Source: Patescibacteria group bacterium
GTDB lineage: Bacteria > Patescibacteriota > Minisyncoccia > Phycocordibacterales > Phycocordibacteraceae
Assembly (NCBI GenBank): GCA_029260935.1
Contig: JAJDCJ010000012.1
Span: forward strand, 33,315-97,314
Length of the DNA stretch: 64,000 nt
Reading direction: 5' to 3'
A program made the translations under genes and the position numbers. Positions 1,951 through 63,394 of the stretch are shown piece by piece (positions within the stretch are counted from its first letter, which is position 1; each line of letters opens with the position of its first letter). The notes under the pieces were generated by a model. It was not told the origin of the DNA. It made no database searches and was given only the letters and a program-made list of their open reading frames with translations.

Positions 1951-2463
1951 ATGTTAGAGGCCTGGATGAATTTTGCAATTGTTGTTTTTGTGCAGCTTCT
2001 CCTTTTCATTATCCATGCATATTATGAAAAAAAACTTTCTGAGGTACCTCGCATTCTCGGATATGGTGTTCTCAGCGGGATAGCGCTTGGCCTTCTCTTT
2101 GACCTTGTATTAGGAAAATTCTTTGGCTTATGGTCGTATACGCTTGGATTTGGTGCGTTCTTCTTAACCCTCAACGCTGCCCTTTTGTATGGACTCTTTG
2201 CAGCGAATACATTACTCATGAAACAGGTGCGTTTACTACACTTTTTTATCTGGACTATGGTAGTGGCATTAGTATTTGAAATCACCAATCTTCTCTTTCA
2301 TTCGTGGACATGGGAATTTGCATTGTCACCCACCAAACTCTTGTTCGTACTTTCAGCTGGTAATTTTGGAGGTGCAGTTCTTGTGGCAGTAGTCTGGCAC
2401 ATGTTTGGACATCGATTTTTGTTTATTGATAATTTGCTCAAAAATAATCAACTACTGGACTGA
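1951..2463 (+). CDS. small integral membrane protein, unknown function
   Basis: 170 aa with four or more hydrophobic helices. Confidence 0.4.
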   Translation: MLEAWMNFAIVVFVQLLLFIIHAYYEKKLSEVPRILGYGVLSGIALGLLFDLVLGKFFGLWSYTLGFGAFFLTLNAALLYGLFAANTLLMKQVRLLHFFIWTMVVALVFEITNLLFHSWTWEFALSPTKLLFVLSAGNFGGAVLVAVVWHMFGHRFLFIDNLLKNNQLLD

Positions 2464-2547
2464 GGTGCGGTAGTTTTGGTTCGTCCGATGAGGACGAACG
2501 ATTTGCTCACGGTGTGTACTTAAACCTCTTTGTGGTTATAACTTTTT

Positions 2548-2590
2548 CCACCATTACGGATGTCTGACATCCGTAATGGTGGGGCTTTTT
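2548..2590. terminator. perfect hairpin CCACCATTACGGATGTCTGACATCCGTAATGGTGG followed by a T-run
   Basis: Inverted repeat read directly; sits between convergent genes. Confidence 0.6.
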
Positions 2591-2618
2591 TGCTAAAAAT
2601 CTCACAGAATATTAAAGG

Positions 2619-3437
2619 TTACGGCAACCTATACCATCTTCCTTTCTTTTCTAACAAGCCCTCCTTAAGTAAAGCGTTGACTTGAGTTTTGGTCCGTTCT
2701 TTCTCAAACGGGAGTTTTTGAAGTTGGAGGATAGTTTGCGGATTGTCACTCACTGCGCGTAGTAGTGCCCCGCGGATTTCTCTATCTGAACCTTTGAACG
2801 ACTTTTGTTTTATGTGGTGGGTGCTTTTTCTTGATGGGTTAGGATGAGTTTTCTTGAGGTAAGAACCATAGTCCATCAAGGATGCATACCACGCACGTGG
2901 TTCAGTATTTTTAGGAATACCCGACTGTATCATATATGATACAATTTCTTTGTCAGAAATATTCTCTTTTTTTGTAAAAAAGTGATGAAGGAATACCGCG
3001 CGGATGTTGGTTTCAATCATCACTTCTGGTTTGTTATAGGCAAACACTCGTATTGCACGTGCGGTATATTCACCCACCCCCGACAGAGCAACCAATGCAT
3101 CATACTCTCGTGGCATCCGACCACTATGATTAATCATAGTGGTCTTTACTGCCTCATGAAGCATTTTTGCACGACGATTATACCCAAGGCCCTGCCACAC
3201 ACGGAGCACATCCCCCAGTGAAGCTTCAGCAAGCGCCTGTATAGTAGGAAACTTTTTAAGAAATGCTTTGTAATACGGAATGACTCTCTCAACTTGTGTT
3301 TGCTGCAACATCACCTCAGAAACTAAAATACGGTATGGGTTTTTAGTGGTCCGCCACGGCAGTGTGTGCCTTCCCTCTTTTCGGTAAAAAGTAAGTACCG
3401 TTTTTTGAAACTCCATTATTTTTTGGTGCGGGGCCAT
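2619..3437 (-). CDS. HhH-GPD superfamily DNA glycosylase (MutY/Nth-like, no 4-Cys Fe-S motif seen)
   Basis: LSGVGEYTARAI helix-hairpin-helix motif followed by a Gly/Pro-rich loop and Asp. Confidence 0.6.
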   Translation of the reverse strand: MAPHQKIMEFQKTVLTFYRKEGRHTLPWRTTKNPYRILVSEVMLQQTQVERVIPYYKAFLKKFPTIQALAEASLGDVLRVWQGLGYNRRAKMLHEAVKTTMINHSGRMPREYDALVALSGVGEYTARAIRVFAYNKPEVMIETNIRAVFLHHFFTKKENISDKEIVSYMIQSGIPKNTEPRAWYASLMDYGSYLKKTHPNPSRKSTHHIKQKSFKGSDREIRGALLRAVSDNPQTILQLQKLPFEKERTKTQVNALLKEGLLEKKGRWYRLP

Positions 3438-4153
3438 ATATTCACTGCCTTTGGGTATATTTTTGTTAATGCGTGTTCTTTACAATCGTGTGGACGAGCC
3501 GAACATACATAACGTCCATACAAAACGAGCCCATTATTTACGTACTGCCAGTCTTTTTTAGGAACCAGTGCCTCAAGTTCTTTTGAAATCTTCGTTAAAT
3601 CATTACTATCTGCTAAATCAAACCGCTTTGCAAAACGCTTCACATGAGTGTCAGTAGGAATACCCTCCCATATATTAAACAGCTCACCCAAAATAACATT
3701 CGCTGTCTTGTAGGCTACCCCAGGGAGACGTTCAAGCTCCTCTTTACTGCGCGGTATACGTCCACCAAAATCATCTATAATCATTTTTGCAGATCCAATA
3801 ATTGCCTTTGTTTTATTCCTATAAAACGGAATAGATGAAAGTTCCCGCTCCAGGACACTCGGTGTTGCTCCAGCAAAGTCTTTGGCTGTACGATATTTTT
3901 TAAAAAGAGTTTTCGTTGTGTTATTTACTGCTTTGTCAGTGCATTGCGCGCTCAACATCACCGCCACCGCAAACTGGAACTGCGTACGGTACCGAAGCTC
4001 GCTCTTGGGGCGAGGGTACATCTTTTTTAGTGCACCTACTATCGCCCGAGCGCGAGTACTTCTTTTATTCCGCGCCGAACTCCTTGAGGTCGTTGAGGAC
4101 TTCTTCTGCGTGGATTTCCGGTTTAACTTTTTCATAGATTTTGGCAACCTCAC
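3416..4153 (-). CDS. nth: endonuclease III-like HhH-GPD glycosylase; probable true start near 4021 (MYPRPKSEL)
   Basis: LPGVAYKTANVILGELF HhH motif. The annotated N-terminal basic extension overlaps bcp by 89 bp, so an internal start is likely. Confidence 0.65.
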   Translation of the reverse strand: MRLPKSMKKLNRKSTQKKSSTTSRSSARNKRSTRARAIVGALKKMYPRPKSELRYRTQFQFAVAVMLSAQCTDKAVNNTTKTLFKKYRTAKDFAGATPSVLERELSSIPFYRNKTKAIIGSAKMIIDDFGGRIPRSKEELERLPGVAYKTANVILGELFNIWEGIPTDTHVKRFAKRFDLADSNDLTKISKELEALVPKKDWQYVNNGLVLYGRYVCSARPHDCKEHALTKIYPKAVNIWPRTKK

Positions 4154-4535
4154 CTTCAGGGTTTATTAAAAATGACGTACGCACAATACCCATATACGCT
4201 TTACCCATCATCTTTTTTTCCTGCCATACGCCGTACTTGGTAACTGTCTCACCCGACTCATCGGCAAGTAAAGGGAATGGCAAACTATATTTTTCGGCAA
4301 AGCGTTTGTGGCTTGCCACTGAATCTTTAGAAATACCCAGCACGTCAGCGTGCATGTTCTCAAACTGCGGAAACGTGTCACGGAGCATGCATGCCTCTTT
4401 TGTGCACCCCGGAGTGTCGTCTTTTGGATAAAAATAGAGTAACGTCCAGCGCCCGCGGTACTTGGAAAGCGTATGAGACTTCCCCGCTTGGTCAGGCAGG
4501 GTAAAATCGGGAGCACTCTTCCCAACAGCAATCAT
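4065..4535 (-). CDS. bcp: thiol peroxidase / peroxiredoxin Bcp
   Basis: FYPKDDTPGCTKEAC peroxidatic Cys motif; 156 aa. Confidence 0.8.
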   Translation of the reverse strand: MIAVGKSAPDFTLPDQAGKSHTLSKYRGRWTLLYFYPKDDTPGCTKEACMLRDTFPQFENMHADVLGISKDSVASHKRFAEKYSLPFPLLADESGETVTKYGVWQEKKMMGKAYMGIVRTSFLINPEGEVAKIYEKVKPEIHAEEVLNDLKEFGAE

Positions 4536-4548
4536 ATCCTTGAGTATA

Positions 4549-5298
4549 TCACGAACCCTTTTCTTCTTTTTTGTTTTCTTTTTCTTTTTCGCTTATTTCT
4601 TTTATTTTTTCTGCTTCTTTTTCAACTTGTTTATCTGCGGTTCGTGCCGTTTTTTCAGCAATATTTCGTTTGACATAAAGGTTCATCAGTGAAAATACCA
4701 CCATACTGGCAAAAACAACACCAACAATGTTTACAAAAAGAAACACAGAAGCGCCAATTACTACATCCCAATTAAGTGCAGCAAGTCCTACACCCATTGA
4801 AGCAACCGGCGGAATAATAGCCACAGCAACGGCAATACCCGGCAATGTCGCACTCAACTCAGGTTTAATCAGTGTGTAGGCAACGGCAAAACCTGCAACT
4901 ATAGCGATTGCAACCGATACAAGTGTTGTGTGTGTGCGCAATAACACTTCGGGGGTAATAGTGTCACCAATTCCGAAAAATAGCGCCGCTAAAAATGAAG
5001 CGAGTAATCCAAGAATAAGCGCCTTTGCAAGTGTCCTGGTTGCGCGAGCAATAAGAACATAATCACTCATTACGACCGAAAGTGAGAGTGAGAGTATAGG
5101 AAATAAAATGGGAGCAATCAGCATACTGCCGATGACTACCGCGGGGCTATTTTCAAGCACACCGAATGTTGCCATAAGCACTGATAAAATAACAAGGAAA
5201 AAGAAATCAAAGTTCGGTGTTGATGCTTCAATTAACTTTTTTACTGCAACTGATTTGTCATGCTCTGATATTGCGCGAATGTGATTAAGAAAACCCAT
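4549..5298 (-). CDS. DUF389-like integral membrane protein with K/E-rich C-terminal tail
   Basis: Multiple TM helices and a charged tail EKEAEKIKEISEKEKENKKEEKGS. Confidence 0.4.
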   Translation of the reverse strand: MGFLNHIRAISEHDKSVAVKKLIEASTPNFDFFFLVILSVLMATFGVLENSPAVVIGSMLIAPILFPILSLSLSVVMSDYVLIARATRTLAKALILGLLASFLAALFFGIGDTITPEVLLRTHTTLVSVAIAIVAGFAVAYTLIKPELSATLPGIAVAVAIIPPVASMGVGLAALNWDVVIGASVFLFVNIVGVVFASMVVFSLMNLYVKRNIAEKTARTADKQVEKEAEKIKEISEKEKENKKEEKGS

Positions 5299-5328
5299 GT
5301 ATATCTGTAGTTATTTTAAAAAACTTTT

Positions 5329-5796
5329 CTATAGAGCATGATTTTCAACAACATCTTGGATACGGGTATTTTTTGTGCGCTCAAGGTAGAAAAGCCCTAT
5401 TGATAATAAGAATAGCATAGTTGAGAAAAGCAGTGAGAGGAGGCAATATTGACAGTACGCGTTGATAATAAATGCCTGAAGATAGAGGAAATATAGTGAG
5501 AGTATGAAGCCCGGAATGGTGAAAAAAAGGAAAAGTTGTGCCAGGTGAAGTTTTTTGTCTGAAAAACCCCATAGAGCAAAACCAAATATCGCTGAATAGA
5601 AAAAGACACCAAAAATGGCAAGAGGAATTCCAAAAACGCGCGAATAAGAACTTGCAGCAACCAAGTCGCATCCCTGAACAAAGTTACACACTGGAGAAAT
5701 ACCCGCAAGTGCGGTGTAGGCAAGGTACCCCGCGTCTATAATCCCAAGAAAACTAAAAAGGGTAAGGCCTGAGAAAATCCATATACGCGTATTCAT
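5329..5796 (-). CDS. vitamin K epoxide reductase (VKOR)-family membrane thiol oxidoreductase
   Basis: 4-TM protein with CNFVQGC and CQYC motif pairs typical of VKOR/DsbB-type proteins. Confidence 0.55.
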   Translation of the reverse strand: MNTRIWIFSGLTLFSFLGIIDAGYLAYTALAGISPVCNFVQGCDLVAASSYSRVFGIPLAIFGVFFYSAIFGFALWGFSDKKLHLAQLFLFFTIPGFILSLYFLYLQAFIINAYCQYCLLSLLFSTMLFLLSIGLFYLERTKNTRIQDVVENHAL

Positions 5797-5841
5797 GGGT
5801 TCAAGTATACTGTAAAAAAAATTTTATAAACTCCCCTTTTA

Positions 5842-6258
5842 ATGTTTTGTAGGTATACTATATGTATGGACAAAAAACCACCTAACGAAGAAGAATTAAA
5901 GGCAAAACTCACTGAGGAAGAGTATGCAGTACTTCGCGGTGGAGGAACAGAAGCGCCGTTTAGCGGAGCGCATCTTAATGTAGAAGGAGACGGTATTTTT
6001 CAGTGTAAAGTGTGCGACAACCAACTGTTTGCAACTGGTACAAAATTTGACTCCGGTACAGGGTGGCCAAGTTTTGATAGTGCTATTCCTGGCGCTGTTA
6101 CCATACTGAGAGATACGTCCCATGGCATGGAGCGCTCTGAGGTAGTATGTGCACAATGTAATTCACACCTCGGTCATGTGTTTGATGACGGCCCAACCAC
6201 GACCGGAAAACGTTATTGTATAAACTCAGTCTGTCTCAATGTAGAAGAGAAAAAATAA
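5842..6258 (+). CDS. msrB: peptide-methionine (R)-S-oxide reductase MsrB
   Basis: CxxC...CxxC zinc motif plus GTGWPSF and RYCINS catalytic-region motifs. Confidence 0.85.
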   Translation: MFCRYTICMDKKPPNEEELKAKLTEEEYAVLRGGGTEAPFSGAHLNVEGDGIFQCKVCDNQLFATGTKFDSGTGWPSFDSAIPGAVTILRDTSHGMERSEVVCAQCNSHLGHVFDDGPTTTGKRYCINSVCLNVEEKK

Positions 6259-6287
6259 CTTCTTTAGTTACGGTCTTTATATAGAGA

Positions 6288-8066
6288 TTATTTTCCTTTT
6301 GCACGTGATGATTCGTTGAGAACCTTTTTACGTAACCTAACGTTGTGTGGAGTAATTTCCAAATACTCATCTTCACTCATTATTTCCATACCACGCTCAA
6401 TGGTAAGTTCCCACGCAGGAGTCAGTTGTATAGCGTCATCATTTCCTGAGGATCGTACGTTGGTGAGGTTTTTTCCTTTAGTAGGATTGGCAACCATTTC
6501 TTCTCCTTTTGAAGTGTTCCCAATTACCTGACCTTCATACACTTCAGTTGCTGGAGGAATATAGATTACACCGCGGTCTTGTAAGTTCCACAAAGCATAG
6601 CCAAGTGCTTTTCCTGTTGCCATTGAGGTCATTGATCCCACTTGGCGCTTTTTAATTTCGCCCACAAACGGCTTAAATCCAATAACGCGACTTGAGAGTA
6701 TTCCATCTCCTTTCGTATCCACCACAAACTGGTTTTTATATCCTAAAAGACCTCGTGTTGGGCCTTCTAGCGTAATACGTACAGCATTGGTTCCTTCAGT
6801 GCGCATATCTTTCATTTGAAAACCACGTCTTCCTAATTTTTCAATAACCGTTCCCTGAAACTCAGCAGGCGTATCAATAATAACCTCTTCAAATGGCTCA
6901 GTTTTCTTTCCATCCTCTTCTCGTATAATCACGCGCGGTTGAGAAATCTGCATTTCATACCCTTCTCGGCGCATATTCTCCAAAAGTACTGCAATATGTA
7001 ATTCTCCACGACCTGAAACGTCAAACATATCGGGGCTTGTGAAATTAATTTTAAGTCCCACGTTTACTTCAAGTTCTTTCTCCAAACGCTCGCGTAGCTG
7101 GCGACTCGTTACAAATTTTCCATCACGCCCGGCAAGAGGAGAATTATTTACTAAAAAGTTTAATGTAATGGTAGGCTCATCAACGGCAATTGCAGGAAGC
7201 GCCTCTGTTGCCTGGTTAACACTCACCGTCTCACCAATAAAAATATCAGGGAGCCCTGCCAGCATGACAATGTCACCAGCTACTACTTCCTCAACTTCTA
7301 CTTTTTCAAGCCCTTTAAAGTTAAACATTTTTGTAACTTTTCCCTGTCTAATTTTTCCATCCATATCTTTTATAAAAACAGTAGATTGTGGAGAGAGCGT
7401 TCCGTCGTACACCCTACCAACTGCTAACCTACCAAGGAAATTGTCGTACCCGAGGTTAAACGGCTGGAAACGAAATGTCTTATCAACTGAACCAGACGCA
7501 GGAGGCACTTTTTCCAAAATCATATCCAAAAGAGGTGTGAGGTCTTTTGAGTCATCGCTCAAGTTTTTCTTTGCAACACCATCTCTCCCTATTGCATAGA
7601 TGACTGGAAAACTAGACTGCTCATTAGTCGCACCTAATTCCAAAAAGAGCTCTAGCACCTGTTCTTCTGCACGGTCAGGATCAGCAGCCGGTTTGTCAAT
7701 TTTATTTAAAATAACAATCGGTTTGAGCCCAAGCTCCAGTGATTTTTTTAATACAAAACGAGTCTGTGGCATCGGACCTTCTTGGGCATCAACAACGAGC
7801 AATACTGAGTCAATTGAACGTAAGACCCGCTCCACTTCACTACCAAAGTCGGCGTGCCCTGGTGTGTCAACGATATTGATCTTTGCGTCCTTATAGTTAA
7901 GTGAGCCGTTTTTTGCATAGATAGTAATACCGCGCTCTTTTTCAATAGAATCGGTGTCCATGGAAAAACCTTCTGCAACCATGCCGGTCTGGCGCATCAA
8001 AGCATCGGTAATAGTTGTTTTACCATGGTCAACGTGAGCAATAATTGCGATATTATACGTTTTCAT
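6288..8066 (-). CDS. typA: translational GTPase TypA/BipA
   Basis: NIAIIAHVDHGKTT G1 motif, DTPGHADF G3 motif, length 592 aa. Confidence 0.9.
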   Translation of the reverse strand: MKTYNIAIIAHVDHGKTTITDALMRQTGMVAEGFSMDTDSIEKERGITIYAKNGSLNYKDAKINIVDTPGHADFGSEVERVLRSIDSVLLVVDAQEGPMPQTRFVLKKSLELGLKPIVILNKIDKPAADPDRAEEQVLELFLELGATNEQSSFPVIYAIGRDGVAKKNLSDDSKDLTPLLDMILEKVPPASGSVDKTFRFQPFNLGYDNFLGRLAVGRVYDGTLSPQSTVFIKDMDGKIRQGKVTKMFNFKGLEKVEVEEVVAGDIVMLAGLPDIFIGETVSVNQATEALPAIAVDEPTITLNFLVNNSPLAGRDGKFVTSRQLRERLEKELEVNVGLKINFTSPDMFDVSGRGELHIAVLLENMRREGYEMQISQPRVIIREEDGKKTEPFEEVIIDTPAEFQGTVIEKLGRRGFQMKDMRTEGTNAVRITLEGPTRGLLGYKNQFVVDTKGDGILSSRVIGFKPFVGEIKKRQVGSMTSMATGKALGYALWNLQDRGVIYIPPATEVYEGQVIGNTSKGEEMVANPTKGKNLTNVRSSGNDDAIQLTPAWELTIERGMEIMSEDEYLEITPHNVRLRKKVLNESSRAKGK

Positions 8067-8155
8067 ATAAAAAGCGGCCTCGGGCCGTCAAGGCCATAAT
8101 AATAGCGCGTCTGAACCTTTTTTCCTAACTTATTCCTACAAACTAGTTCTTTTAT

Positions 8156-8443
8156 CTATTTATCTATTGTCCCACCGATAAAGTTTGCAATTTTAAATGC
8201 TGGCTTCGCCATCAAAGACGCAACCAACACAGGAATAAAGAGACGAGACGCACCTGCTAAAAGTTCATCCCAATCTTCTTCAGGAACAATCGGTGGTTGT
8301 ATCGTTTCAATGTCTGTGAGATAATCACCAGCTTCCCATACGCCCCATAAAGCCAATAAAGTGGGAATAAGCAAAGTTATTGCGCCAATTCCAAGTGCAA
8401 ATTTATCTCTAGCTTTTAGTTTTTCCGTATAATTTTCTGCCAT
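8156..8443 (-). CDS. small membrane protein, unknown
   Basis: 95 aa, one central TM segment. Confidence 0.3.
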   Translation of the reverse strand: MAENYTEKLKARDKFALGIGAITLLIPTLLALWGVWEAGDYLTDIETIQPPIVPEEDWDELLAGASRLFIPVLVASLMAKPAFKIANFIGGTIDK

Positions 8444-8755
8444 ATAAATTTAATAGTTAATTTAAAATAAATTATTAATCAAAGTATATCTACCAATGAC
8501 AGTATCTTACCACGATAAACGACTATTTGTCAAGTATTAAAATCGTGACTACCAGACCCAAAATAAGGGTAATGGGTTAAGTCGCTTACCTCCTTCTAGT
8601 ACTCTGCACACCGGAAACCTGGAGTAAACCATCCATATATTGCTAAACATCAGCAATATAGACAACCGCTTCTTTTTCAACCGTCCGAAACTCGCTCCAC
8701 ACATTCAGTATAGTCGCAAAAAGTGACAGACTGACAAAAACAAATAAGAATATCT

Positions 8756-8959
8756 CTAACCTTTACGCCTATGTTTTGCAAACTGAAAACCGCGAACTGC
8801 CAAGTATCCGGCAATCAATACTGCAACCCAGCTCACCCACACCGGAATAGCCACACCCGCAACAACCGCCTCCCATTGGTAGATACCGCGTACCGCGTGC
8901 AGTACCGCAATAATGCTAAAAATAACCGCAACGAGCTGATAGTATGTTTTTGTATTCAT
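8756..8959 (-). CDS. small 2-TM protein, unknown
   Basis: 67 aa, two hydrophobic helices. Confidence 0.3.
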   Translation of the reverse strand: MNTKTYYQLVAVIFSIIAVLHAVRGIYQWEAVVAGVAIPVWVSWVAVLIAGYLAVRGFQFAKHRRKG

Positions 8960-8987
8960 ATGAAAAAAGTATACCCCACCTTACTGT

Positions 8988-9776
8988 CTACCTGGCATTC
9001 AGCTGTGTATACTCCACAACACCCTCATTGGAAAAGTCTGGCCGGCTGTCGGGGATGACGGCGTCGTAAAATAGAGCCGGAATACCGATGTCTGCCACAT
9101 AGACCGTGCCGGACAGTGCTTTGCCCGCTTCGGTTTCAAAGAGCTTTTTTGGAACGGCAAGGGTGAGTGTTGCATCTGCATGCACACATACTCCGGTGCA
9201 CTCACCTGTGGTAGCGTCCGCACCCGACGGAAGGTCGTAGGAAATGACGCGGGCCTTGCTTTTTTGTATTACCTCAATGAGTGTTACAAAAACTCCGCGC
9301 GGAGCACCGAGAAGATGGTACCCAATAAGCGAGTCAATAATAACGTCCGCACCGGTTATTTTTTTCTGCATCTTTTCTTTCTCCTGTTCTTTGTAAACAG
9401 AAATTGGGATATTCATTTTTGTAAGGAGCGCACAGTGGTGTGCGGGGTCCGGTTTTATGTTTTCATCCGCAAGCACCACTGAAATGTTTTTCCATCCGTG
9501 GTTAAAGAGGTGTCGCACAGCGGAAAGCCCGTCGCCTCCTTTATTCCCCTTTCCGCACACCACCACAACCGCATCTTTTTTTGAGATTTTTTCTTTTTCA
9601 AACACACTCACCATATGGAACCCCGCCAGCTCCATCATTTGCCGTATCTCAAGACCGCCCGCAACCGCAACGCGGTCAAGCTCTTCTATTTCTTTTGTCG
9701 TGTAGTGCATAGTTTTAGCGTTTACTAGCCCCATTATACCCATCAAATCCACCCTATGATGGACGCCCAACGTCAA
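8988..9776 (-). CDS. NAD(P)H-hydrate epimerase (YjeF N-terminal domain)
   Basis: VVVCGKGNKGGDGLSAVRHL motif; likely start at the internal MGLVNAKT. Confidence 0.65.
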   Translation of the reverse strand: MTLGVHHRVDLMGIMGLVNAKTMHYTTKEIEELDRVAVAGGLEIRQMMELAGFHMVSVFEKEKISKKDAVVVVCGKGNKGGDGLSAVRHLFNHGWKNISVVLADENIKPDPAHHCALLTKMNIPISVYKEQEKEKMQKKITGADVIIDSLIGYHLLGAPRGVFVTLIEVIQKSKARVISYDLPSGADATTGECTGVCVHADATLTLAVPKKLFETEAGKALSGTVYVADIGIPALFYDAVIPDSRPDFSNEGVVEYTQLNAR

Positions 9777-9780
9777 TCAT

Positions 9781-10473
9781 TTATTGAGTGAGGGAAAAAC
9801 TCTGCGTGGCAAAGTGGCTCACCCACCCGTCAAAGTCAACCAAAAGGAGCTTCGCTGTGTATTTTTTCCCTGACTGTAATTCTGGCGTGCGCGCCGGTGG
9901 ACCAACAGAAAGAGACGCGCGTTGTGTATGCGGATAGGTCCACTGTGTCTCGCGAGTATAGAGCGCCGCGCAGGTCTCTCCCTCCTCATCTTCAACGGCT
10001 AGAAAATAAATAAGTGCGTCAAATTTTTGCGCGTCTTTCCATTTGAACGTTACCGTGCCGTTTGTATGCGGCAAAACACTGAGCACAGTGCGGTCATACA
10101 CGGTGCGTTCTTTAATCGTAATTTCGGGCGAAGCGAGTAGGCGCCCGTGGTGGTTTTTTGCGGTTATTTTGTAGTGCTCTCCAACCTGCGCGTCAGGTAC
10201 AGTAGCCCGTAGAACCACACTCCCTGAAAAATTCTGGGCAGGTATGGGTGTTCTAGGTTCCCATTGAGCGCTTCTTCGTGCCACGACCTGATACTCACTC
10301 CGCCCGGGCCACGGGGTATAAATCAGAGAAACACTGCCGTCTGTTTCCCTTAACCCGCAGGCAATGACTTCCTGATTGGCGTAGAGGCGGACAATAGGGC
10401 GAGCTAGAAAACCCACATACCGCGTCATCCAGCGCATGTTCCATACTAAAAAACGCAGAGCGACGCGCTTCAT
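9781..10473 (-). CDS. hypothetical protein
   Basis: 230-aa ORF tightly packed with its neighbours; no recognisable motif. Confidence 0.4.
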   Translation of the reverse strand: MKRVALRFLVWNMRWMTRYVGFLARPIVRLYANQEVIACGLRETDGSVSLIYTPWPGRSEYQVVARRSAQWEPRTPIPAQNFSGSVVLRATVPDAQVGEHYKITAKNHHGRLLASPEITIKERTVYDRTVLSVLPHTNGTVTFKWKDAQKFDALIYFLAVEDEEGETCAALYTRETQWTYPHTQRASLSVGPPARTPELQSGKKYTAKLLLVDFDGWVSHFATQSFSLTQ

Positions 10474-10474
10474 A

Positions 10475-10858
10475 TTATGTGGGGTTGTTTTCTAATTTTT
10501 CCAGAAGTATTTTTTTTAATCCTTCCATATCGCTTACTCCCTCAATCTCTTCCGCATTCACCAAAATGTTTAACCCGTCTTCAGATTCGGTCAAAATAAC
10601 CGGCAGAGCAGTGTCCGTATGGTGTGGATATTTTTTATGAAACTCATCTCGGTGGAGAAATGTCTTTTCATTCGGCAGTGAATCAAGAAAGTCCCGCCAC
10701 GGCGACTTCATAGCCACCGCACCATACGTCACCATACAGAGGTTGCAGGCATACTTGCTCGGTGTCACGATACGCGTAATAAAATCTTCTGCCGCAGCTT
10801 TCAGCGTTGCATCGGAATTATAAACAAAAATTATCTGAGGATTTTCTTTGTCACTCAT
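10475..10858 (-). CDS. hypothetical protein with a CNLC motif
   Basis: 127-aa ORF whose stop and start are adjacent to the neighbouring genes. Confidence 0.4.
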   Translation of the reverse strand: MSDKENPQIIFVYNSDATLKAAAEDFITRIVTPSKYACNLCMVTYGAVAMKSPWRDFLDSLPNEKTFLHRDEFHKKYPHHTDTALPVILTESEDGLNILVNAEEIEGVSDMEGLKKILLEKLENNPT

Positions 10859-11556
10859 CCGATAAGCATATCAGACTTTATATTCGGGATATCAAAAAAA
10901 TGTAATAATTCCTCAGGTGTATCAACTACTGCAACCGGGTTTCCTTGCTCTAAACGGGCGCGAGAGTGAAAGCCCCACGTTACAGCAACACTTTGTATAC
11001 CGGCACTATGCGCTTCGTGTATATCCCCAAGTGTATCCGTAATAAACCAGTAGTTTTCTTTTGGTAGCGCATACAGGGTAATCAATTCTTCTAGTTTTTC
11101 AATCTTACTGGTGCTTTTTTCCATCCCCCATACATGTTTGAAAAGTGAATGTATATTATTTTGCCGTAGGTACCCACAGAGCGCATCATCAAGACTAGAC
11201 GAAACAATAGAAAATGCAGAGTTTTTATGTAGTGTAGTAAGTGCTCGTTTCAAGGGTTTGCCGATAGACATTCTCTGTAGCCCTTCTGTATATTTTTTAT
11301 AAAAAATATACTTATCTACTGTGCTGATTTCCTTGGTGTGTATGGCGTTGTGAACATTACCATCAAACCAGCTACGATATTCTTCGCGAGTAAGCGTAGG
11401 TAACGGGTCCTTAAAAAGGTTAAAGGTTAACTCAAACGTGTCTTCAATAACCCCGTCAAAATCAAAAATAAGAAGCTTCTTCATAGTACAGTTTTGTTCA
11501 CGCTCTGAAATTATATATGCTTTATGAACGGCTCCTGCCGGTGGTGTGGCAGGCAT
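10855..11556 (-). CDS. HAD-superfamily hydrolase/phosphatase
   Basis: LLIFDFDGVIEDT motif I of the HAD fold. Confidence 0.7.
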   Translation of the reverse strand: MPATPPAGAVHKAYIISEREQNCTMKKLLIFDFDGVIEDTFELTFNLFKDPLPTLTREEYRSWFDGNVHNAIHTKEISTVDKYIFYKKYTEGLQRMSIGKPLKRALTTLHKNSAFSIVSSSLDDALCGYLRQNNIHSLFKHVWGMEKSTSKIEKLEELITLYALPKENYWFITDTLGDIHEAHSAGIQSVAVTWGFHSRARLEQGNPVAVVDTPEELLHFFDIPNIKSDMLIG

Positions 11557-11983
11557 GCAGGCGGTGCATATACCTGTTCACCACGAACACCGAAAGTGGG
11601 AGCAGGAGCGCCATTTGAAGCACGGGAGAGAGCCCGACATTCAGCCCCGGAATAATAGGCATGGTGTTCAGGTAAAACCAACGATCAAAAACAAAAGCTT
11701 TGTATTCCACAAACACGGCAATGAAGATACCTAAAATAAAGAGCCCTGCATAGTCGGTAATGCGAACGCTTTGAAACCACACCAAGCTCTTTTTAAACAA
11801 GGCAACAAGGAGCACCGCGCCGAACGTGTAGCGCACATCACCAAGGGTGGCCCATAGGGTAATAGGAACGCTCCCTGAAAGTCCCTCATATCCTCCGTAT
11901 AAAGAGAGGTGTGAAGATTCCCACACAAAGTGAAACACAAAAGAAACCACGGCAAGCAGACCATAAATATAGAGTGTTTTCAT
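11522..11983 (-). CDS. integral membrane protein, unknown
   Basis: 153 aa, four hydrophobic helices. Confidence 0.4.
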   Translation of the reverse strand: MKTLYIYGLLAVVSFVFHFVWESSHLSLYGGYEGLSGSVPITLWATLGDVRYTFGAVLLVALFKKSLVWFQSVRITDYAGLFILGIFIAVFVEYKAFVFDRWFYLNTMPIIPGLNVGLSPVLQMALLLPLSVFVVNRYMHRLHACHTTGRSRS

Positions 11984-12017
11984 GCACCTTCATAATACCT
12001 GAATTACTACAAAAAGC

Positions 12018-12269
12018 TCACAGTGATATTATTTTGAGTAAGTCTAACTTTTTATTACGAGACAACTTCTTGATTTGAGCTTCGCGTTTTTGTGCGGTGC
12101 CACGGCTAGGATGTTTCTCACTGTATACAATTTTCCGAGCGCCGTGTGAGCGAGTATAGTGCCCACCGTCGCCCTGTATATGTTCTTGTAAGCGTCGTGC
12201 TACGTCTGTAGTAATCCCCGTATAAAAAGAGTCGTCAGCGCATTCCAGTATATAGACGTAATAGTGCAT
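12018..12269 (-). CDS. GIY-YIG domain protein
   Basis: YVYILECADDSFYTGITTDVARRLQEH matches the GIY-YIG signature. Confidence 0.75.
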   Translation of the reverse strand: MHYYVYILECADDSFYTGITTDVARRLQEHIQGDGGHYTRSHGARKIVYSEKHPSRGTAQKREAQIKKLSRNKKLDLLKIISL

Positions 12270-12284
12270 TTCTTTAACTTTACA

Positions 12285-12827
12285 CTATCGCATCAAAGTA
12301 GACTTAAAAAGTTTTTCTTGTGTTGCTTTCTTTAAAACATCATCAAGTGAATGCCGAAACCAATATGTATAGTGCTCTTTGTGATTGTGTATATCTTCTT
12401 GTAGTGCTTTGAGTTCAATCCATTTCCAATCATCCGCCTCTTCAGGGTGTAGCACTGGAGGTTGGTCGGATATTCCAACAAGGACGTGGTCATATTCGTG
12501 TTCAATAAGACCATTAGGAAATTCTGTCTTATACACAAATGAATGCACCTCAGTAAGGTCGCAATCAAAGCCCATTTCCTCTTGAAGTCTGCGGTGGGCG
12601 GCATCTAAAGTACGTTCATTGGGCCGTGGGTGACTACAGCATGTATTTGTCCATAACCCACCTGAGTGGTATTTATCTTGCGCCCTTTTCTGAAGTAGCA
12701 TTCGCCCGTCAGGATGAAAAATAAATACTGAAATTGCGCGGTGCAGTTTCCCCTGCCTGTGAGCTGCAAGTTTTTCCATCGTTCCAATGTGTTCGTCGTT
12801 TTCGTTTACAAGAATGACCTCTTCCAT
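12285..12827 (-). CDS. idi: isopentenyl-diphosphate delta-isomerase, type 1 (Nudix)
   Basis: HRAISVFIF and WTNTCCSHP motifs plus a glutamate cluster. Confidence 0.85.
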   Translation of the reverse strand: MEEVILVNENDEHIGTMEKLAAHRQGKLHRAISVFIFHPDGRMLLQKRAQDKYHSGGLWTNTCCSHPRPNERTLDAAHRRLQEEMGFDCDLTEVHSFVYKTEFPNGLIEHEYDHVLVGISDQPPVLHPEEADDWKWIELKALQEDIHNHKEHYTYWFRHSLDDVLKKATQEKLFKSTLMR

Positions 12828-12966
12828 GCGTGTATTGTATCAAAATAGATATATAACCGAATTAACGACTGAACTAACGACAGAGTTATCTAAAGAGAAA
12901 GATTATCTTGAATAATCTGTTCATTTGGAAAACCGAGTAAATCATTTTTCCTATACCATTCTTGCC

Positions 12967-12995
12967 GACGCGATTTTTACGCTTCTGACTTCTTG
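12967..12995. repeat. 29-bp direct repeat GACGCGATTTTTACGCTTCTGACTTCTTG (copy 1)
   Basis: Exact match to the copy at 13657-13685; the two copies bracket the P-loop kinase gene. Confidence 0.9.
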
Positions 12996-13064
12996 ACGTA
13001 TGTGGTTTTACCAGATCCCGGCAAGCCACAGATGAGGTACGTGGTTGATTTTTCGTGCATATAT

Positions 13065-13613
13065 CTATAGTCCAGTGTCTTTTTTTATTAACGCTACAGT
13101 AGCTTCAAGCGTAAAATCGTCGGTGATGATTTTCTCGCCAGGAAAGCCGATTATGTCGTTTTCTTTGTACCATCGTGCCATTTGCTCCCCTGTAAACTCA
13201 TCTCGTTTTGGTTTTGTTTGATGGCGTTTTATTGTTTCCTCAAGAGAAATATTGAAGTAGTAATAGAACGTATTATTGGGGTGTTGCTTGTTTAATTTCA
13301 GGAAAAAGTCTTTATAGACATCAAACACAAAATTTCCCTCAAGAATTACATGAAAACCTCTTTCTAAGCAAAACATCACTGTTTGATAGATAAGGTCTGC
13401 GTTGTGTGTCCGGGGACGCCCTCTGCATTCTCGCAAGACTTCTCGACGAAGATAGTCTTGTTCAATAATCGCGATGTTTTCTTCTGACTGTTCGCGCAGC
13501 TTTTTGGCAACAGTACTTTTCCCACTCCCAGAACTGCCACGCAGGATGATAAGTTTGGTATCCATTGCTTTATCATAACAAAGGTTAATGGATGCAAACA
13601 TATCTAGTACCAC
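13065..13613 (-). CDS. P-loop nucleotide/nucleoside kinase-like protein
   Basis: LIILRGSSGSGKSTVAKKL Walker A motif; likely start at the internal MDTKL; size about 165-180 aa. Confidence 0.6.
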   Translation of the reverse strand: MVLDMFASINLCYDKAMDTKLIILRGSSGSGKSTVAKKLREQSEENIAIIEQDYLRREVLRECRGRPRTHNADLIYQTVMFCLERGFHVILEGNFVFDVYKDFFLKLNKQHPNNTFYYYFNISLEETIKRHQTKPKRDEFTGEQMARWYKENDIIGFPGEKIITDDFTLEATVALIKKDTGL

Positions 13614-13656
13614 ACTCAGCGGGTATGCAATTTCAGAATAGTCTTCGGAGGGTTTT

Positions 13657-13685
13657 GACGCGATTTTTACGCTTCTGACTTCTTG
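13657..13685. repeat. 29-bp direct repeat (copy 2)
   Basis: Identical to 12967-12995. Confidence 0.9.
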
Positions 13686-13707
13686 TGCCTAGGACGGCAC
13701 TGCGAAG

Positions 13708-13761
13708 CGAATTCGAGCTTTTTTAAAATCGAGCGTTTCACTTGTAAAAAACTCGAATTCG
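13708..13761. repeat. long inverted repeat with 21-nt loop
   Basis: Arms CGAATTCGAGCTTTTTT and AAAAAACTCGAATTCG give about 16 bp of pairing. Confidence 0.7.
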
Positions 13762-13770
13762 GCTGGCCGT

Positions 13771-13838
13771 CTCGAGCTAGAACCGCGGTCGGTTAAGCCC
13801 CACAAGGTTATTTTTAACTATTTTATTTTACCAATTCG
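13771..13838. repeat. conserved 3' flank of cassette locus A (about 80% identical to 42631-42700)
   Basis: CTCGAGCTAGAACCGCGGTCGGTTAAGCCCCACAAGGTTATTTTTAACTATT against CTCGGGCTGGAACTGTGGTCGGCTAAGCCCAGTAAGGTTATTTTTAACTATT. Confidence 0.8.
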
Positions 13839-13868
13839 ACGGGTCTCGAGCACCTTAATCTCATATAT

Positions 13869-15176
13869 TCAAAAAGATAAAACACTCAGCATGCTCTCAA
13901 TTGATTCTCGTAAGTCGCTTTCATTAAAATCAGGTCTAGCTGTTTCATCTGCATGATGAATTTTATTTCTTATGGATACAGGAAGAGACTCAATAACAAC
14001 ATCTCCGACTTTACATGTTGAGTGAGAAATAGTCGCAGTAAACTGACTTGCTTTTCTTACGTTCGAATCTCCATCTAATTTCCTTTTTAGTTGACTGTAG
14101 CCCCCTTCTTTTACCTCCAAAGCAGCGAAAAGCTCGATATGTAATAGTTCATCGACGATATCATAAACTTTATAGTTTATTAAATTTAAACTGGGACCGC
14201 CTCCAATCATGTTTTTATAAAACCCAATCTTTTCACCTATCTGCTCCTTATTTCTGTCAATCTTGTAACACACGCTTTTCCCGTCCCTCAATCCTTGCAG
14301 GATGTACGGAGAATGAGTTGCTATCACAAATTGAATATCTAAACCCGTAAACACATCCGTTAGAAACTGAATATATTTCTTCTGCCACTTAGGATGCAAA
14401 CTTGTCTCTGGTTCATCAATTAGTATTAAAGAACCGTCTAAATTTTCTAACTCTTTTAAAAGGTGACCGACTCTATAAATTATTTGTTTCTCTCCTGTGC
14501 TAAATGTACCCAAACCAACTTCGTTACTGTTTTCGTCTGTGAAGACAATCTTCAGTTCACCATCTTGAGGCTTAACAGTTTTGAATGTTTTTGTCCCATT
14601 AAACATTTTTTCAAATGCATTTGTAAATCTTTCAATTTTACGAGTATGTTGCTCTGGAATTTTTCCATGCTCTGCAATGTAGTCATCGATAAAAGTCGCA
14701 TCCTGGGTCTTAAGATTAACTAACAGTTGAGGAATTACCTCAGATAAATCCTCAGACTCTTCTCTTGGGTTCCTTTTCTCATCTATGGTTATTGCGGTTG
14801 CAGAAGTAACTTTAGGATTTTTAAAACCAACAGCAACCCTATCGTAAATAACTTTTAAATCTTTTGGGTGATTATCACTGCTAATTCGACTGTCCTCTAC
14901 ATTGATTTTCATTTCGGTGTACTCTTCGCCATCCAGGAGAGAAAGTACGGCTTTTATTTCATTACTGTCCACGTGTATTAAGTAACCCTCTTCTGTCTTT
15001 CCCAAGCTGTTATAAATCAAATCAAGAATGGACGTCTTTCCATATCCATTCTCACCAGCCAAAAAGAAGAAAGAGGGTATATTCTTTTTATCCTCAGACT
15101 TTTCAAAAAGTGTTAAAACTGAATCCCCTTTGAACGCAGGATGTGAAGTAAATTTGATTTGTTGAAGTTTTTTCAT
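13869..15176 (-). CDS. ABC/SMC-type P-loop ATPase (AAA_21/AAA_15-like), second gene of a two-gene operon
   Basis: Walker A LAGENGYGKTS, signature-like FSTGEKQ, Walker B LILIDEPETSLHP, H-loop ATHSP, and a 120-aa C-terminal extension with no TOPRIM or HNH motif. Confidence 0.75.
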   Translation of the reverse strand: MKKLQQIKFTSHPAFKGDSVLTLFEKSEDKKNIPSFFFLAGENGYGKTSILDLIYNSLGKTEEGYLIHVDSNEIKAVLSLLDGEEYTEMKINVEDSRISSDNHPKDLKVIYDRVAVGFKNPKVTSATAITIDEKRNPREESEDLSEVIPQLLVNLKTQDATFIDDYIAEHGKIPEQHTRKIERFTNAFEKMFNGTKTFKTVKPQDGELKIVFTDENSNEVGLGTFSTGEKQIIYRVGHLLKELENLDGSLILIDEPETSLHPKWQKKYIQFLTDVFTGLDIQFVIATHSPYILQGLRDGKSVCYKIDRNKEQIGEKIGFYKNMIGGGPSLNLINYKVYDIVDELLHIELFAALEVKEGGYSQLKRKLDGDSNVRKASQFTATISHSTCKVGDVVIESLPVSIRNKIHHADETARPDFNESDLRESIESMLSVLSF

Positions 15177-15679
15177 TTTTTATCATCAGTATTCCAAAAT
15201 CTCTCAACCTCTTCCTGTTTCTTTTTCCTTTCTGAATCCAACTCATTCCTAAATGACTGCCCCAATTCATTTGCAAATCTATTTTCAATTTCTTCAACTC
15301 TTAGGTATGCTTCACGACCTTCATTTTGGTGTTCTTTACTGCTTTCGTCATCTTCACTTTCTAATGATAGATAATGTGAAGAATTTTGTCTGCTGAGATT
15401 GTACGCGTAATCTTTCCAATCTTCAGCTAAACGAACCAATTTAGATTGATCATGTTTATGTTTTTCTTTCAATCGAATGTACCAGTCTTTCATTCTTACT
15501 ACTTCTGGTTCATCTTCTTCCAACCCATAGGCAACCTTAGCTGTTGTTCTGTATGAATTAAGCATTAAGTCTGCAAATTCCTCGTATTTTTCTATCTTTT
15601 TTGCAGGTGTCGAATCAAGCACTAGTTTTGCTATGTACCAAATTGCCACGATTATTAAAATTGTATAAATAAAACTCAT
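15173..15679 (-). CDS. membrane-anchored coiled-coil protein, first gene of the operon (start corrected to MSFIYTIL)
   Basis: N-terminal TM helix IYTILIIVAIWYIAKLVL followed by a highly charged E/K/D-rich region; overlaps the ATPase gene by 4 bp (ATGA). Confidence 0.55.
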   Translation of the reverse strand: MSFIYTILIIVAIWYIAKLVLDSTPAKKIEKYEEFADLMLNSYRTTAKVAYGLEEDEPEVVRMKDWYIRLKEKHKHDQSKLVRLAEDWKDYAYNLSRQNSSHYLSLESEDDESSKEHQNEGREAYLRVEEIENRFANELGQSFRNELDSERKKKQEEVERFWNTDDKK

Positions 15680-15780
15680 ATCTTTTATTCTATCGCAACC
15701 ACCATATTTATATAGTAAGTTGCCTGCAACGCTCTTCGAGCGCACGAGATCGCTATATTCCTCGAGCTAGCTCGATTTGG
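15680..15780 (-). promoter_or_regulatory. conserved 5' flank/promoter of cassette locus A (homologous to 43350-43447)
   Basis: Shares TTGCGATAG(A/T)ATAAAA(G/A)AT immediately before the ATG, plus CTCGTGCGCTCGA and GAGCTAGC blocks, with locus B. Confidence 0.7.
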
Positions 15781-15935
15781 CTGGGGGACAGGGACTCGAA
15801 CCCCGATTGATGGCACCAGAAACCATAGTCCTACCGACAAGCGAGTGAGGGTCACAGGAAAGTTTACTTTCATATGACCGAACGAGCGCAGTCGGAAAGC
15901 TTTGCTTACCACTGGACGATCCCCCAAGGCGTTAG
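15781..15935 (-). tRNA. tRNA-Gln(CUG) interrupted in the D-loop by an 81-nt insertion
   Basis: The exons fold into a canonical 74-nt tRNA with U1-A72, G73, D-arm GUCC/GGAC, anticodon loop UUCUGGU and T-loop UUCGAGU. The insert starts AGCAAAGCUU. Confidence 0.6.
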
Positions 15936-21762: not shown

Positions 21763-21878
21763 CTATACCAATTCTACCGTCCCCCAGTATGTCCTATCGG
21801 GGGGGTGCTTTTTATTCTTATTTTCCACAATCATCTGTTACCCCCCCCTATAGACACTGGATGTCCATGGGGGATTCA

Positions 21879-21931
21879 GCCACGTAAAAGTAAATATGGA
21901 CACGCCGTGTCCATATTTACTTTTACGTGGC
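21879..21931. repeat. 53-bp perfect palindrome
   Basis: GCCACGTAAAAGTAAATATGGACACG / CGTGTCCATATTTACTTTTACGTGGC; its 27-bp core recurs at 44164-44196. Confidence 0.9.
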
Positions 21932-21932
21932 T

Positions 21933-22090: not shown

Positions 22091-22165
22091 CGCGGCCGAC
22101 CGGACTCGAACCGGCAACCTCCCGCGTGACAGGCGGGTGCTACTAACCAATTGAGCTACGGCCGC
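22091..22165 (-). tRNA. tRNA-Asp(GUC)
   Basis: Anticodon loop CUGUCAC, T-loop UUCGAGU, acceptor GCGGCCG/CGGCCGC. Confidence 0.8.
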
Positions 22166-22850
22166 ATTTCGGATACAGAGTATGTATTGCCTTCGAAAAT
22201 AGCTCGTATTTCCTTGGTAAATACAGTTCTGTATTAGGGCTAGTATGATACATCAGCTTGTAAAGTGCAAGACTATCGCGATGACTAAAAACAAGTTCAA
22301 AGCCTCGCTTCTTGTACTTTTCTAAAACAAATCCCCTATTCAGACCATTTTCTCTAAGAGTACTAAAGAGTGTTAGAAGAAATTTTTGAGATCCTGACGT
22401 GAATCTGCTTGTAAATACCCAACGTTTTTTGTTTCGATCTTTAGCAAAATATTTTTTAAAATGAACGCTGCCGTCGCCATCAAAATATCCCCTGACGAAA
22501 TGATGTAAATATCCTTGAGGGACTTTTGGGAAACAGATTGTTTTGCTTTTGTTTTGAGTGAAACCAAGTTTTATCAAATCAGAGAACCATTCTCTACTTC
22601 CAAACTGCACGCGATACTGTTGCTTCCATTTTTCGTTCCTTTGAGGACGTTCCGAAATTTTCTGAGTTCCTCCGACAATCTTCCGTAATTTTTGAAGCAA
22701 AATTTTGTCTGTAGATGTAAATTCAATATAGTGTCCTCCTCTTTTATTCTCAATCATTGAACCGTCTGCGGCAAAATACCCCAATACATACGCCATGTCT
22801 GATGTCCACGTTTTGAAAAAGTCTTGGTTTAGCTTCTTTTTTATTGGCAC
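22143..22850 (-). CDS. double-motif LAGLIDADG homing-endonuclease-family protein, free-standing, directly 5' of tRNA-Asp
   Basis: Two motifs, VLGYFAADGSM and VRGYFDGDGSV, spaced about 100 aa apart; the 3' end overlaps the tRNA 5' region by about 23 nt. Confidence 0.7.
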   Translation of the reverse strand: MPIKKKLNQDFFKTWTSDMAYVLGYFAADGSMIENKRGGHYIEFTSTDKILLQKLRKIVGGTQKISERPQRNEKWKQQYRVQFGSREWFSDLIKLGFTQNKSKTICFPKVPQGYLHHFVRGYFDGDGSVHFKKYFAKDRNKKRWVFTSRFTSGSQKFLLTLFSTLRENGLNRGFVLEKYKKRGFELVFSHRDSLALYKLMYHTSPNTELYLPRKYELFSKAIHTLYPKCGRSSIG

Positions 22851-24161: not shown

Positions 24162-24401
24162 TTATTTGGTAGGTCCCTTGGTACTGCCATGCCCACGACA
24201 CCCTTCGCATTTTTTAAATAGGTCTTCTACGAACCAACCGCCACGATTTCCGCAATGTTGACACCCTCCACCTTCACACTTCCTACATATATGCCACGAT
24301 TTTCCATACCCAGACCCCTTACATTTTGTACAAATAGTAGGATCAAAATCTTTTTTGTATTGAGTTTCAAACATATGGTGCCGACGGCAGGAATTGGTCA
24401 C
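24162..24401 (-). CDS. small DnaJ-type zinc-finger protein (four CxxCxGxG repeats); likely start MFETQYKK
   Basis: CTKCKGSG, CRKCEGGG, CQHCGNRG, CEGCRGHG; the annotated N-terminus overlaps the tRNA-Met-derived repeat. Confidence 0.55.
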   Translation of the reverse strand: MTNSCRRHHMFETQYKKDFDPTICTKCKGSGYGKSWHICRKCEGGGCQHCGNRGGWFVEDLFKKCEGCRGHGSTKGPTK

Positions 24402-24768
24402 CCGTCGCTAACCATTTTACTTCATAAACTCGTAAAATGCTAATCGCGCTCCACCCCGACTCGGCAACGTGTGCTCCGCCACGGCTTCGCACCCTCTGTC
24501 TTTCAATTCCTTCCGTCTTGTTCAAATTGTAAAAAATACTATGCATGCGCATAGTATTTAACAATTTGTGCCGACGGCAGGAATTGGTCAGGAGTCCATG
24601 AAAATTAGAGTCACTGCCGTTCCTTAATTTTCTATGGCTCACGACCCTGGCTCGGCGACAAGCACTCGTCGTACCTCCTCGTCTTGTATACCGCCTCCGC
24701 CTTTCAATTCCTGTCAATCAGGCACATTGTAAAAAACACCATACTCAAACGTATGATGTTTTACAATG
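24367..24768. repeat. two tandem about-200-bp units, each ending with a copy of the tRNA-Met 3' end (GTGCCGACGGCAGGAATTG)
   Basis: The 19-mer occurs at 24367, 24568 and 24768 (the last is the tRNA itself). The units share CTCGGC, CTTTCAATTCCT and TTGTAAAAAA blocks. Confidence 0.8.
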
Positions 24769-24844
24769 TGTGCCGACGGCAGGAATTGAACCTGCGACCT
24801 TAGCTTTATGAGTGCTACGCTCTAACCAACTGAGCTACGCCGGC
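24769..24844 (-). tRNA. tRNA-Met(CAU) elongator-type (could be the k2C Ile2 species)
   Basis: Acceptor GCCGGCG/CGUCGGC, anticodon loop CUCAUAA, T-loop UUCAAUU. Confidence 0.75.
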
Positions 24845-25121: not shown

Positions 25122-25450
25122 TGTTGCGGGGCCCAGAATCGAACTGGGGTCTGGAGGTTCTTTTACACTCAATGTTTCCAAAGAGAATGGACTATACCAT
25201 GGTCCACGTGGGACCCTCCCATTATAGTCTCTGAACCTTCCGAGCTATATCAAACGATATGGCTTGGCTTGGCTGCTGATTACCGAATCAACTTGCTTTT
25301 TAAACCATCGCACTCACCCTCTCAGGTCATGCTGTGGTGCAAGAAGCTCTAACGGCTTTCCAGCAATTTAGAGAGTTTTCCACCGTCTGTTGCCAAACGG
25401 GGTCACGTTCTTCACATGAGCCTCCCGAGGTACCTCTCCTCTACCCCGCG
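25122..25450 (-). ncRNA. about 330-nt structured RNA with tRNA-like T-arm and acceptor end; possible tmRNA (ssrA), unconfirmed
   Basis: 3' end CCCAGUUCGAUUCUGGG-CCCCGCA-A-CA pairs with 5' CGCGGGG. The region has no ORF and smpB is present in the window. There is no G3-U70 pair and no classic tag. Confidence 0.35.
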
Positions 25451-63361: not shown

Positions 63362-63394
63362 TAAAAACCTAACGCTCTCAGAATATGATTCTAT

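Follow-up and report, generated by a model that had tools for sequence, protein, structure and literature searches.

What history is recorded by two identical 29-nt sequences that stand on either side of a small kinase gene? The question is raised by a 64,000-nt stretch of a Patescibacteria group bacterium contig (hereafter the window), for which an earlier note had proposed that the pair looks like att-type recombination junctions or the edges of a recombination-mediated insertion. An exact-match search of the window found two copies of GACGCGATTTTTACGCTTCTGACTTCTTG just where they had been reported, at 13657-13685 (here termed R1) and 12967-12995 (R2), and these are in direct orientation, identical at 29/29 positions, 690 bp apart, and separated by a segment of 661 nt. 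The edges of the duplication are sharp, with the flanks of R1 and R2 lacking similarity on either side. Moreover, the count in the 64-kb window stays at two when up to three mismatches are allowed, the chance expectation is zero (no match in 100 shuffles), and whole-window repeat searches returned no other member of such a repeat family. The 29-mer had no match in the genome_contigs or viral_contigs collections either, and within these sequences it is thus not a motif common throughout genomes, which the earlier note had named as one finding that would speak against its reading. Here, we also rejected a shared terminator, there being just these two copies in 64 kb with three mismatches allowed and no terminator-like site in 12800-13900, an interval in which no promoter-like prediction overlaps R1 or R2. 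Rfam models gave nothing at their gathering thresholds in the region, and only chance-level matches below them. The sequence itself forms a small imperfect palindrome (GACGCG-ATTTTTA-CGCTTC). A CRISPR array (at least three repeats with spacers of 25-50 nt) was likewise dismissed, as there are only two copies, they lie 661 nt apart, and the would-be spacer is a gene. In addition, a plasmid or phage origin was set aside for the locus, since no plasmid or phage sequence was matched by 12828-13868 in blastn.

Every gene at the locus lies on the minus strand, and we describe the features in that reading direction. The most upstream are a 190-aa ORF (15745-15173) with no family match and a PtuA-like AAA_21/AAA_15 ATPase (13869-15176), which matches Pfam AAA_21 (E 7e-18) and the PADLOC PtuA models (down to E 7e-29), though with 69.5 bits against an NCBIfam PtuA cutoff of 500. 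The ATPase gene overlaps the ORF upstream of it by 4 nt, and no PtuB/HNH partner is recognisable in this unit (13869-15745). It is followed by a noncoding stretch (about 13686-13885), here called U, that comprises a repeated junction element and a long hairpin, and which is homologous to another part of the window (42729-42601; E 3e-13) and to positions 7727-7942 of L013, a 687-kb ENA scaffold (E 3e-15). The inverted repeat previously described at 13708-13761 is a genuine hairpin (minimum free energy of −44.7 kcal/mol, z −3.8), with no T-run after it. R1 then stands in noncoding DNA, and a conserved leader of 91 nt (13566-13656) connects it to the start of an intact gene for a 166-aa P-loop kinase (kinase A; 13065-13565, stop codon at 13067-13065). 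Only 4 nt beyond this stop begins a 65-nt N-terminal stub (MHEKSTTYLICGLPGSGKTTYV...) of a second kinase, kinase B (12996-13060), and beyond the stub come R2 and the C-terminal end left over from a third kinase, which is A-type (A'; about 12863-12966). Last in the row is idi (12285-12827), a NUDIX-type isopentenyl-diphosphate isomerase (Pfam NUDIX, E 6e-21) whose homologues are named isopentenyl-diphosphate delta-isomerase by their sources. The 29-mers had been described as flanking the P-loop kinase ORF and nothing else, but the 661-nt segment also takes in 65 nt from the start of kinase B, its Walker-A N-terminus, and R2 lies inside a broken gene.

The kinase ORF itself proved to be real. 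While the mechanical ORF extends to a GTG at 13613, the likely start is the ATG at 13565, with which the start of P0002, the closest homologue (86% amino acid identity), is aligned. Kinase A carries a Walker A motif (GSSGSGKS) and reaches 43.2 bits against Pfam AAA_33 (cutoff 27, E 6e-11), with positions 1-134 of the 143 in the profile covered, and it therefore qualifies as a P-loop kinase of this family. Two other families fared differently in the profile searches, where Zeta_toxin (PF06414) gave a partial match (29.8 bits, cutoff 22.3, profile positions 16-92 of 199), and the NCBIfam PRK06762 models matched at E 6e-53. With the best of the latter at 179.5 bits, against a cutoff of 258, the relation to PRK06762 is one of family-level similarity only, below every equivalog cutoff. 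Kinase A thus resembles the PRK06762/AAA_33 small P-loop kinases in its Walker A motif, its full-length AAA_33 match and its strong PRK06762 similarity, yet differs in falling under all NCBIfam equivalog cutoffs and in matching Zeta_toxin only in part. The closest solved structure is a weak match, L-seryl-tRNA(Sec) kinase (E 1.5e-3), and more than 100 homologues of 160-190 aa occur in Patescibacteria and Actinobacteria.

For the two broken kinases, we turned to contigs that carry related genes. These are L002, a 5.8-kb Logan contig that encodes P0002, together with L013 and L014-16, which were found by a search with kinase B. L002 has a complete kinase B of 159 aa downstream of kinase A, with the same 4 nt separating the two genes, and L013 has an intact kinase B without a kinase A before it. 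In fact, kinase B is intact in L002, L013, and L014-16 alike (158-159 aa), and the 29-mer is not found in it in L002, L013, or L014. The stub in the window is 77% identical to amino acids 1-26 of the L002 kinase B (tblastn, E 2e-8) and 74-80% identical in nucleotides to the genes in L002, L013, and L014-16, with the blastn homology stopping at 12999 in each case, 4 nt before R2. When read in register from the ATG with intact B genes, identity is 78% (51/65) before R2, 38-41% (11-12/29) inside it, and 26-29% after it, and this drop indicates that R2 is foreign to kinase B. We accordingly discarded the idea that R2 is native kinase B sequence, as it reaches an identity of about 40% in register with each of three intact B genes. 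At the start of R2, 6-7 of 13 nt do match intact B (AAGAAG vs AAAAAA), with KKSE encoded where B has KKLE, a likeness that could be microhomology at a switch point or chance, and that could leave some room for R2 being native in part.

On the downstream side of R2, the A' remnant corresponds to the last ~35 codons of an A-type kinase (...RRQEWYRKNDLLGFPNEQIIQDNLSL, a stop, then ITLSLVQSL). We identified it with a family HMM built from about 100 members, from which P0001 (kinase A itself, a single-member cluster) and P0002 (the 86% relative) had been left out, and to which it aligns at positions 128-171 of 184 (23.3 bits, E 2e-9). It is 38% identical to amino acids 120-161 of kinase A (tblastn, E 2e-7), and 52 of 90 nucleotides are shared with the kinase A gene, which marks A' as an old paralogue and not a fresh duplicate; on the same count, a recent duplication of kinase A was rejected as its origin. 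The alternative that U is the decayed N-terminal part of the A' gene was also rejected, as no frame of U yields a kinase-like match with the family HMM. An in-frame TAG in A' (12892-12890) takes the place of a glutamate that is conserved in the family, and the profile alignment continues beyond it, so that A' has at least one inactivating change besides its truncation. Translation across R2 opens with the ATG at 13060 and runs as MHEKSTTYLICGLPGSGKTTYVKKSEA, a stop, KSRRQEWYRKNDLLGFPNEQIIQDNLSL, and a second stop. The last codons of MHEKSTTYLICGLPGSGKTTYVKKSEA and its TAA (12979-12977) fall within R2, and KSRRQEWYRKNDLLGFPNEQIIQDNLSL, its stop, and ITLSLVQSL carry on in the same frame. The fusion of B stub, R2, and A' is best regarded as a pseudogene, which could encode a peptide of 27 aa at most.

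As the contig was assembled from a metagenome, strain variants or chimeric reads could have been joined falsely through a short shared sequence, and this has to be considered here, the more so as 29 is the k-mer size of some assemblers. However, the Logan assembly of run SRR15505513, which uses k=31, matches window positions 2285-15122 at 100% identity with the 29-mer present twice, so that the NCBI and Logan contigs agree fully through both copies. Although the two assemblies probably share their source reads, their agreement makes the structure independent of any one assembler. A de Bruijn path from the B stub through R2 into A' requires k-mers in the reads that span the joints, and the sequences on the two sides of R2 make biological sense as gene fragments that share a reading frame. 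An assembly or amplification artefact consequently appears improbable.

Which of the two copies is the native one can be judged from their surroundings. In a three-way alignment, the last ~20 nt of R1 (its 3' two-thirds) align to TCCACGAGCGCACGAGACCCGTC, which is conserved in L002 and L013, and the CGTC|AAAA junction between R1 and the downstream leader is conserved in the window, L002, and L013. Within this leader, CTATTCTGAAATTGCATACCCGCTGAG has counterparts of about 90% identity at L002 1230-1257 and L013 7915-7943, the latter pairing with window 13641-13613 at 90% identity. On the other side of R1, L013 7726-7845 corresponds to window 13880-13761 (73% over 121 nt, E 6.5e-12). Moreover, a single colinear nhmmer alignment of L013 7715-7960, the region upstream of the L013 kinase B, with window 13878-13608 runs straight across R1 (E 5.3e-17). 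The 29-mer by itself gives no significant match to the upstream region of L002 (z 0.9), and the native status of R1 therefore rests on the colinear alignment of its flanks. Being enclosed in a unit that is conserved on both sides, R1 is identified as the native copy, whereas R2 is best regarded as a derived copy of 29 nt. Furthermore, the full identity of the two copies and their sharp edges, set against the 52/90 of A' and kinase A, suggest that the patch is young and not the relic of a longer duplication.

The locus is then most readily understood, with a probability that we put at roughly 60%, as a scar left by rearrangement, with a pseudogene, in a kinase cluster that is decaying inside a mosaic accessory locus. 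There are only two novel joints, those of the B stub with R2 and of R2 with A', and the 29 nt that they enclose recur without a mismatch 690 bp upstream, a pattern characteristic of deletions with a templated insertion. Insert and nearby sequence agree at 29/29 positions in direct orientation, the genes on both sides of it are truncated relative to intact homologues, and the presumed template sits in its native context. The starting state would have been a row of small P-loop kinase genes arranged in tandem within an accessory region, with kinase B and A' presumably still at full length in this lineage. A deletion would then have removed the remainder of kinase B, the greater part of A', and anything between the two, giving the novel joint. 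Most likely, through a template switch during replication or repair, a DNA end in kinase B was primed for a short time on the sequence lying 690 bp upstream, and 29 nt were copied before rejoining took place in A'. An identical product would arise in two steps if a 690-bp tandem duplication, creating the joint of B and R, were succeeded by a deletion that begins 29 nt into the second copy. The sequence fits the single-step and two-step routes equally and does not distinguish them. The 29-mer itself, we propose, would be functionless.

Deletion junctions with inserts identical to nearby flanking sequence are a documented footprint of repair in animals (PMC4032859). The junction in the window is like those of the polymerase-theta/MMEJ or FoSTeS/MMBIR type in that a short insert is identical to a sequence a few hundred bases off in direct orientation, and in that the sequences on both sides of the joint are truncated; it differs in that those junctions are described in animals with the template near the break, whereas here the template lies 690 bp away and the DNA is bacterial (probably Patescibacteria). 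For the two-step route, the model is the tandem duplication followed by a remodelling deletion that is familiar from the Salmonella and E. coli duplication literature. This would give the same product, namely the B stub joined to the start of R and then the first 29 nt of the second copy, but two events are needed, and no intermediate with a full second copy was observed.

The same alignments bear on whether the leader, kinase A, and the start of B arrived together as foreign DNA at a staggered break, whose fill-in would have duplicated a 29-bp target. The clear homology to L002 is in keeping with this, as window 13588-12999 aligns to L002 1303-1892 (blastn; 78% identity, ungapped, 590 nt), entirely within the segment between the repeats, with nothing else in L002 matching the window by blastn; the ends of the 661-nt segment, too, look arbitrary. 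Such a very long target-site duplication would be similar to the duplication of repeats by integrases of the Cas1-Cas2 type. However, the homology to L013 and L002 runs leftward through R1 into U, so the left edge is not a breakpoint, and neither terminal inverted repeats nor, among the ORFs scanned, a transposase were found. We know of no mechanism that yields a 29-bp duplication around a 661-bp insert, and a landing beside the remnant of a kinase of the same family would be a coincidence. This course of events is therefore quite improbable. The related option of a transposon with its target-site duplication was rejected, since 29 bp exceeds the typical 2-15 bp, inverted repeats are missing from the ends of the 661-bp segment, and the scanned ORFs gave no transposase match; here, the judgement of the earlier note that the repeat is too long for a target-site duplication stands.

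That the region is a mosaic accessory one, as had also been suggested, is borne out by the relatives. The closest idi homologues (68% identity, on three contigs) have no kinase adjoining idi, the kinase module sits in differing gene neighbourhoods among the relatives, and the DNA upstream of it is a repeated junction element. Constant synteny of the kinase with idi, the other observation that had been named in advance as counting against an insertion, is thus absent from the three nearest idi-bearing contigs. Among the distant relatives that possess the module, there is one diverged R1-like stretch and no R2, and no flanking repeats of note surround the module in L002. The searched collections contained no close relative of the host genome, and protein-guided scans of genome_contigs and metagenome_contigs gave matches of at most 45% identity or short fragments alone. 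As a separate observation, kinase A constitutes an insertion/deletion difference between L002 (1303-1830) and L013 (7960-8000), the order being U, leader, hairpin, A, and B in the former and U, leader, hairpin, and B in the latter. Just before its kinase B, L013 has TATACTGAAATC, which resembles the 3' end of kinase A (GATACTGGACTT) and hints at a loss of kinase A in L013.

The junction DNA itself falls into two types of element. The R-element (~130 nt), to which U belongs, is present at 13884-13758 and 42741-42625 in the window, at 7715-7850 and 464-577 in L013, and at 1047-1165 in L002 (HMM E-values of 1e-16 to 1e-34), and it follows immediately on the stop codons of genes that are unrelated to one another. 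The two copies in L013 stand at either end of a 7.2-kb island with genes for a large serine recombinase (513-2024), a Rep protein, and a TIR protein, and the R-element may be an attachment site. We rejected a structured RNA as its identity, its consensus fold being weak (−8 kcal/mol, covariation term 0.5). The L-element, with copies at 15811-15690 and 43473-43359 (minus strand) in the window, at 1129-1217 in L002, and at 7814-7904 in L013, opens with a sequence like a tRNA 3' end, continues with AGCTAGC.CGA...CTCGTGCGCTCGAG, and is located immediately before cargo genes of unrelated kinds. R- and L-elements jointly bound two units in the window, one with the 190-aa ORF and the PtuA-like ATPase and the other with a 206-aa ORF, and no similarity was found between the cargo proteins of the two. 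In both L002 and L013, an R-element abuts an L-element directly upstream of the kinase module. Junction elements of about 130-250 nt that resemble partial tRNAs separate unrelated genes in the locus.

Repetition of this kind prompts the thought that two tandem kinase modules once had U-R leaders of their own and were reduced by two deletions or by gene conversion, which would leave R2 as the last piece of the second leader. Elements of the U type do recur in the genome (13884-13758 and 42741-42625), and A', being A-type, could once have had its own leader. On the other hand, other copies of the junction elements are about 70-80% identical, against 29/29 with sharp edges for R1 and R2, and this course needs two separate deletions that both happened to stop right at the edges of the identical stretch. 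We consider this origin unlikely.

The junction elements also bear on the att-type proposal, according to which a circular element with kinase A was inserted at a 29-bp core and left attL and attR behind. A perfect direct repeat does bracket the 661-bp segment, the region is accessory with repeated junction elements, and the L013 island, with its large serine recombinase between R-element copies, implies that site-specific integration operates in such loci. Nevertheless, the repeats are not at joints of host and element. The putative element would stop after the first 65 nt of a gene that relatives have in full, R2 lying inside the truncated kinase B, and the joint of U, R1, and leader is not novel but colinear with L013 and L002 on both sides. 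No integrase, recombinase, or transposase is encoded among the ORFs with Pfam scans or annotation, from ~2.6 kb to 24 kb of the window (~10 kb to either side), and genome_contigs and viral_contigs offer no further copies of the 29-mer. Moreover, the hypothetical joined U-R-A', tested as the would-be old empty site, is no more kinase-like than the present arrangement (23.7 vs 23.3 bits with the family HMM), so that an earlier truncation would still be needed. The att-type integration is hence largely refuted and, in our estimation, very improbable. For comparison, tycheposons are tRNA-targeting islands with successive integrations and partial-tRNA attachment sites (bioRxiv 10.1101/2020.12.28.424599). 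The locus shares with these and with other attL-attR islands the direct repeats flanking accessory DNA and the junction elements, like partial tRNAs, between unrelated cargo. It departs from them in that the 29-mer is not a junction element, R2 is in a broken gene, R1 lies off the homology breakpoint, and there is no adjacent integrase. The arrangement of the R- and L-elements in L013 and the window, as distinct from the 29-mer, resembles the accretion of elements at the partial-tRNA attachment sites of tycheposons.

It is more improbable still that the 29-mer is a functional joining site of a recombination system that shuffles small cargo genes in the accessory locus, in which event R2 would mark a site-directed gene fusion or cassette exchange and not a random repair scar. 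Taken as the rearrangement scar that we favour, the finding is in itself minor, being another example of decay in an accessory gene cluster. It has some value for annotation, in that the ORF after kinase A should be recorded as a pseudogene stub and the repeat should be labelled neither an att site nor the termini of a mobile element. If confirmed at the level of reads, it would be of modest use as a documented instance in which a templated patch at a deletion joint in bacteria can be traced. The architecture of the junction elements is more interesting than the 29-mer, is shared with distant metagenome contigs, and may show how these small genomes acquire accessory and defence genes.

Several further observations concern tRNA-related sequences in the window. 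A tRNA-like gene at 15781-15927 (minus strand) has a perfect 7-bp acceptor stem (TGGGGGA...TCCCCCA), a T-arm, an encoded GCCA, and an internal insertion of 50-80 nt. It was missed by ARAGORN with default settings, is a partial match to the Rfam tRNA model (16 bits), and appears in the ARAGORN intron mode as an odd tRNA-Asp with a 51-nt intron. A tRNA-Ser(gct) at 43641-43728 (minus strand) is preceded, at about 43790-43763, by a partial copy of its own 5' end, and ~180 nt downstream of it, a copy of its 3' end (CGAATCCCTGCGTCTCCGCC; about 43470-43451) opens an L-element. A group I intron (25168-25500, minus strand; Rfam, 55 bits) adjoins tRNA-Met (24770-24844), and the 3' motif GTGCCGACGGCAGGAATTG has three copies within 24341-24788. 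A LAGLIDADG ORF (22143-22850) abuts tRNA-Asp. Finally, the window contains a perfect palindrome with arms of 27 nt (21878-21932), whose core, AAATATGGACACG.CGTGTCCATATTT, is common to 44167-44193, and a separate perfect palindrome with arms of 23 nt (63394-63439).
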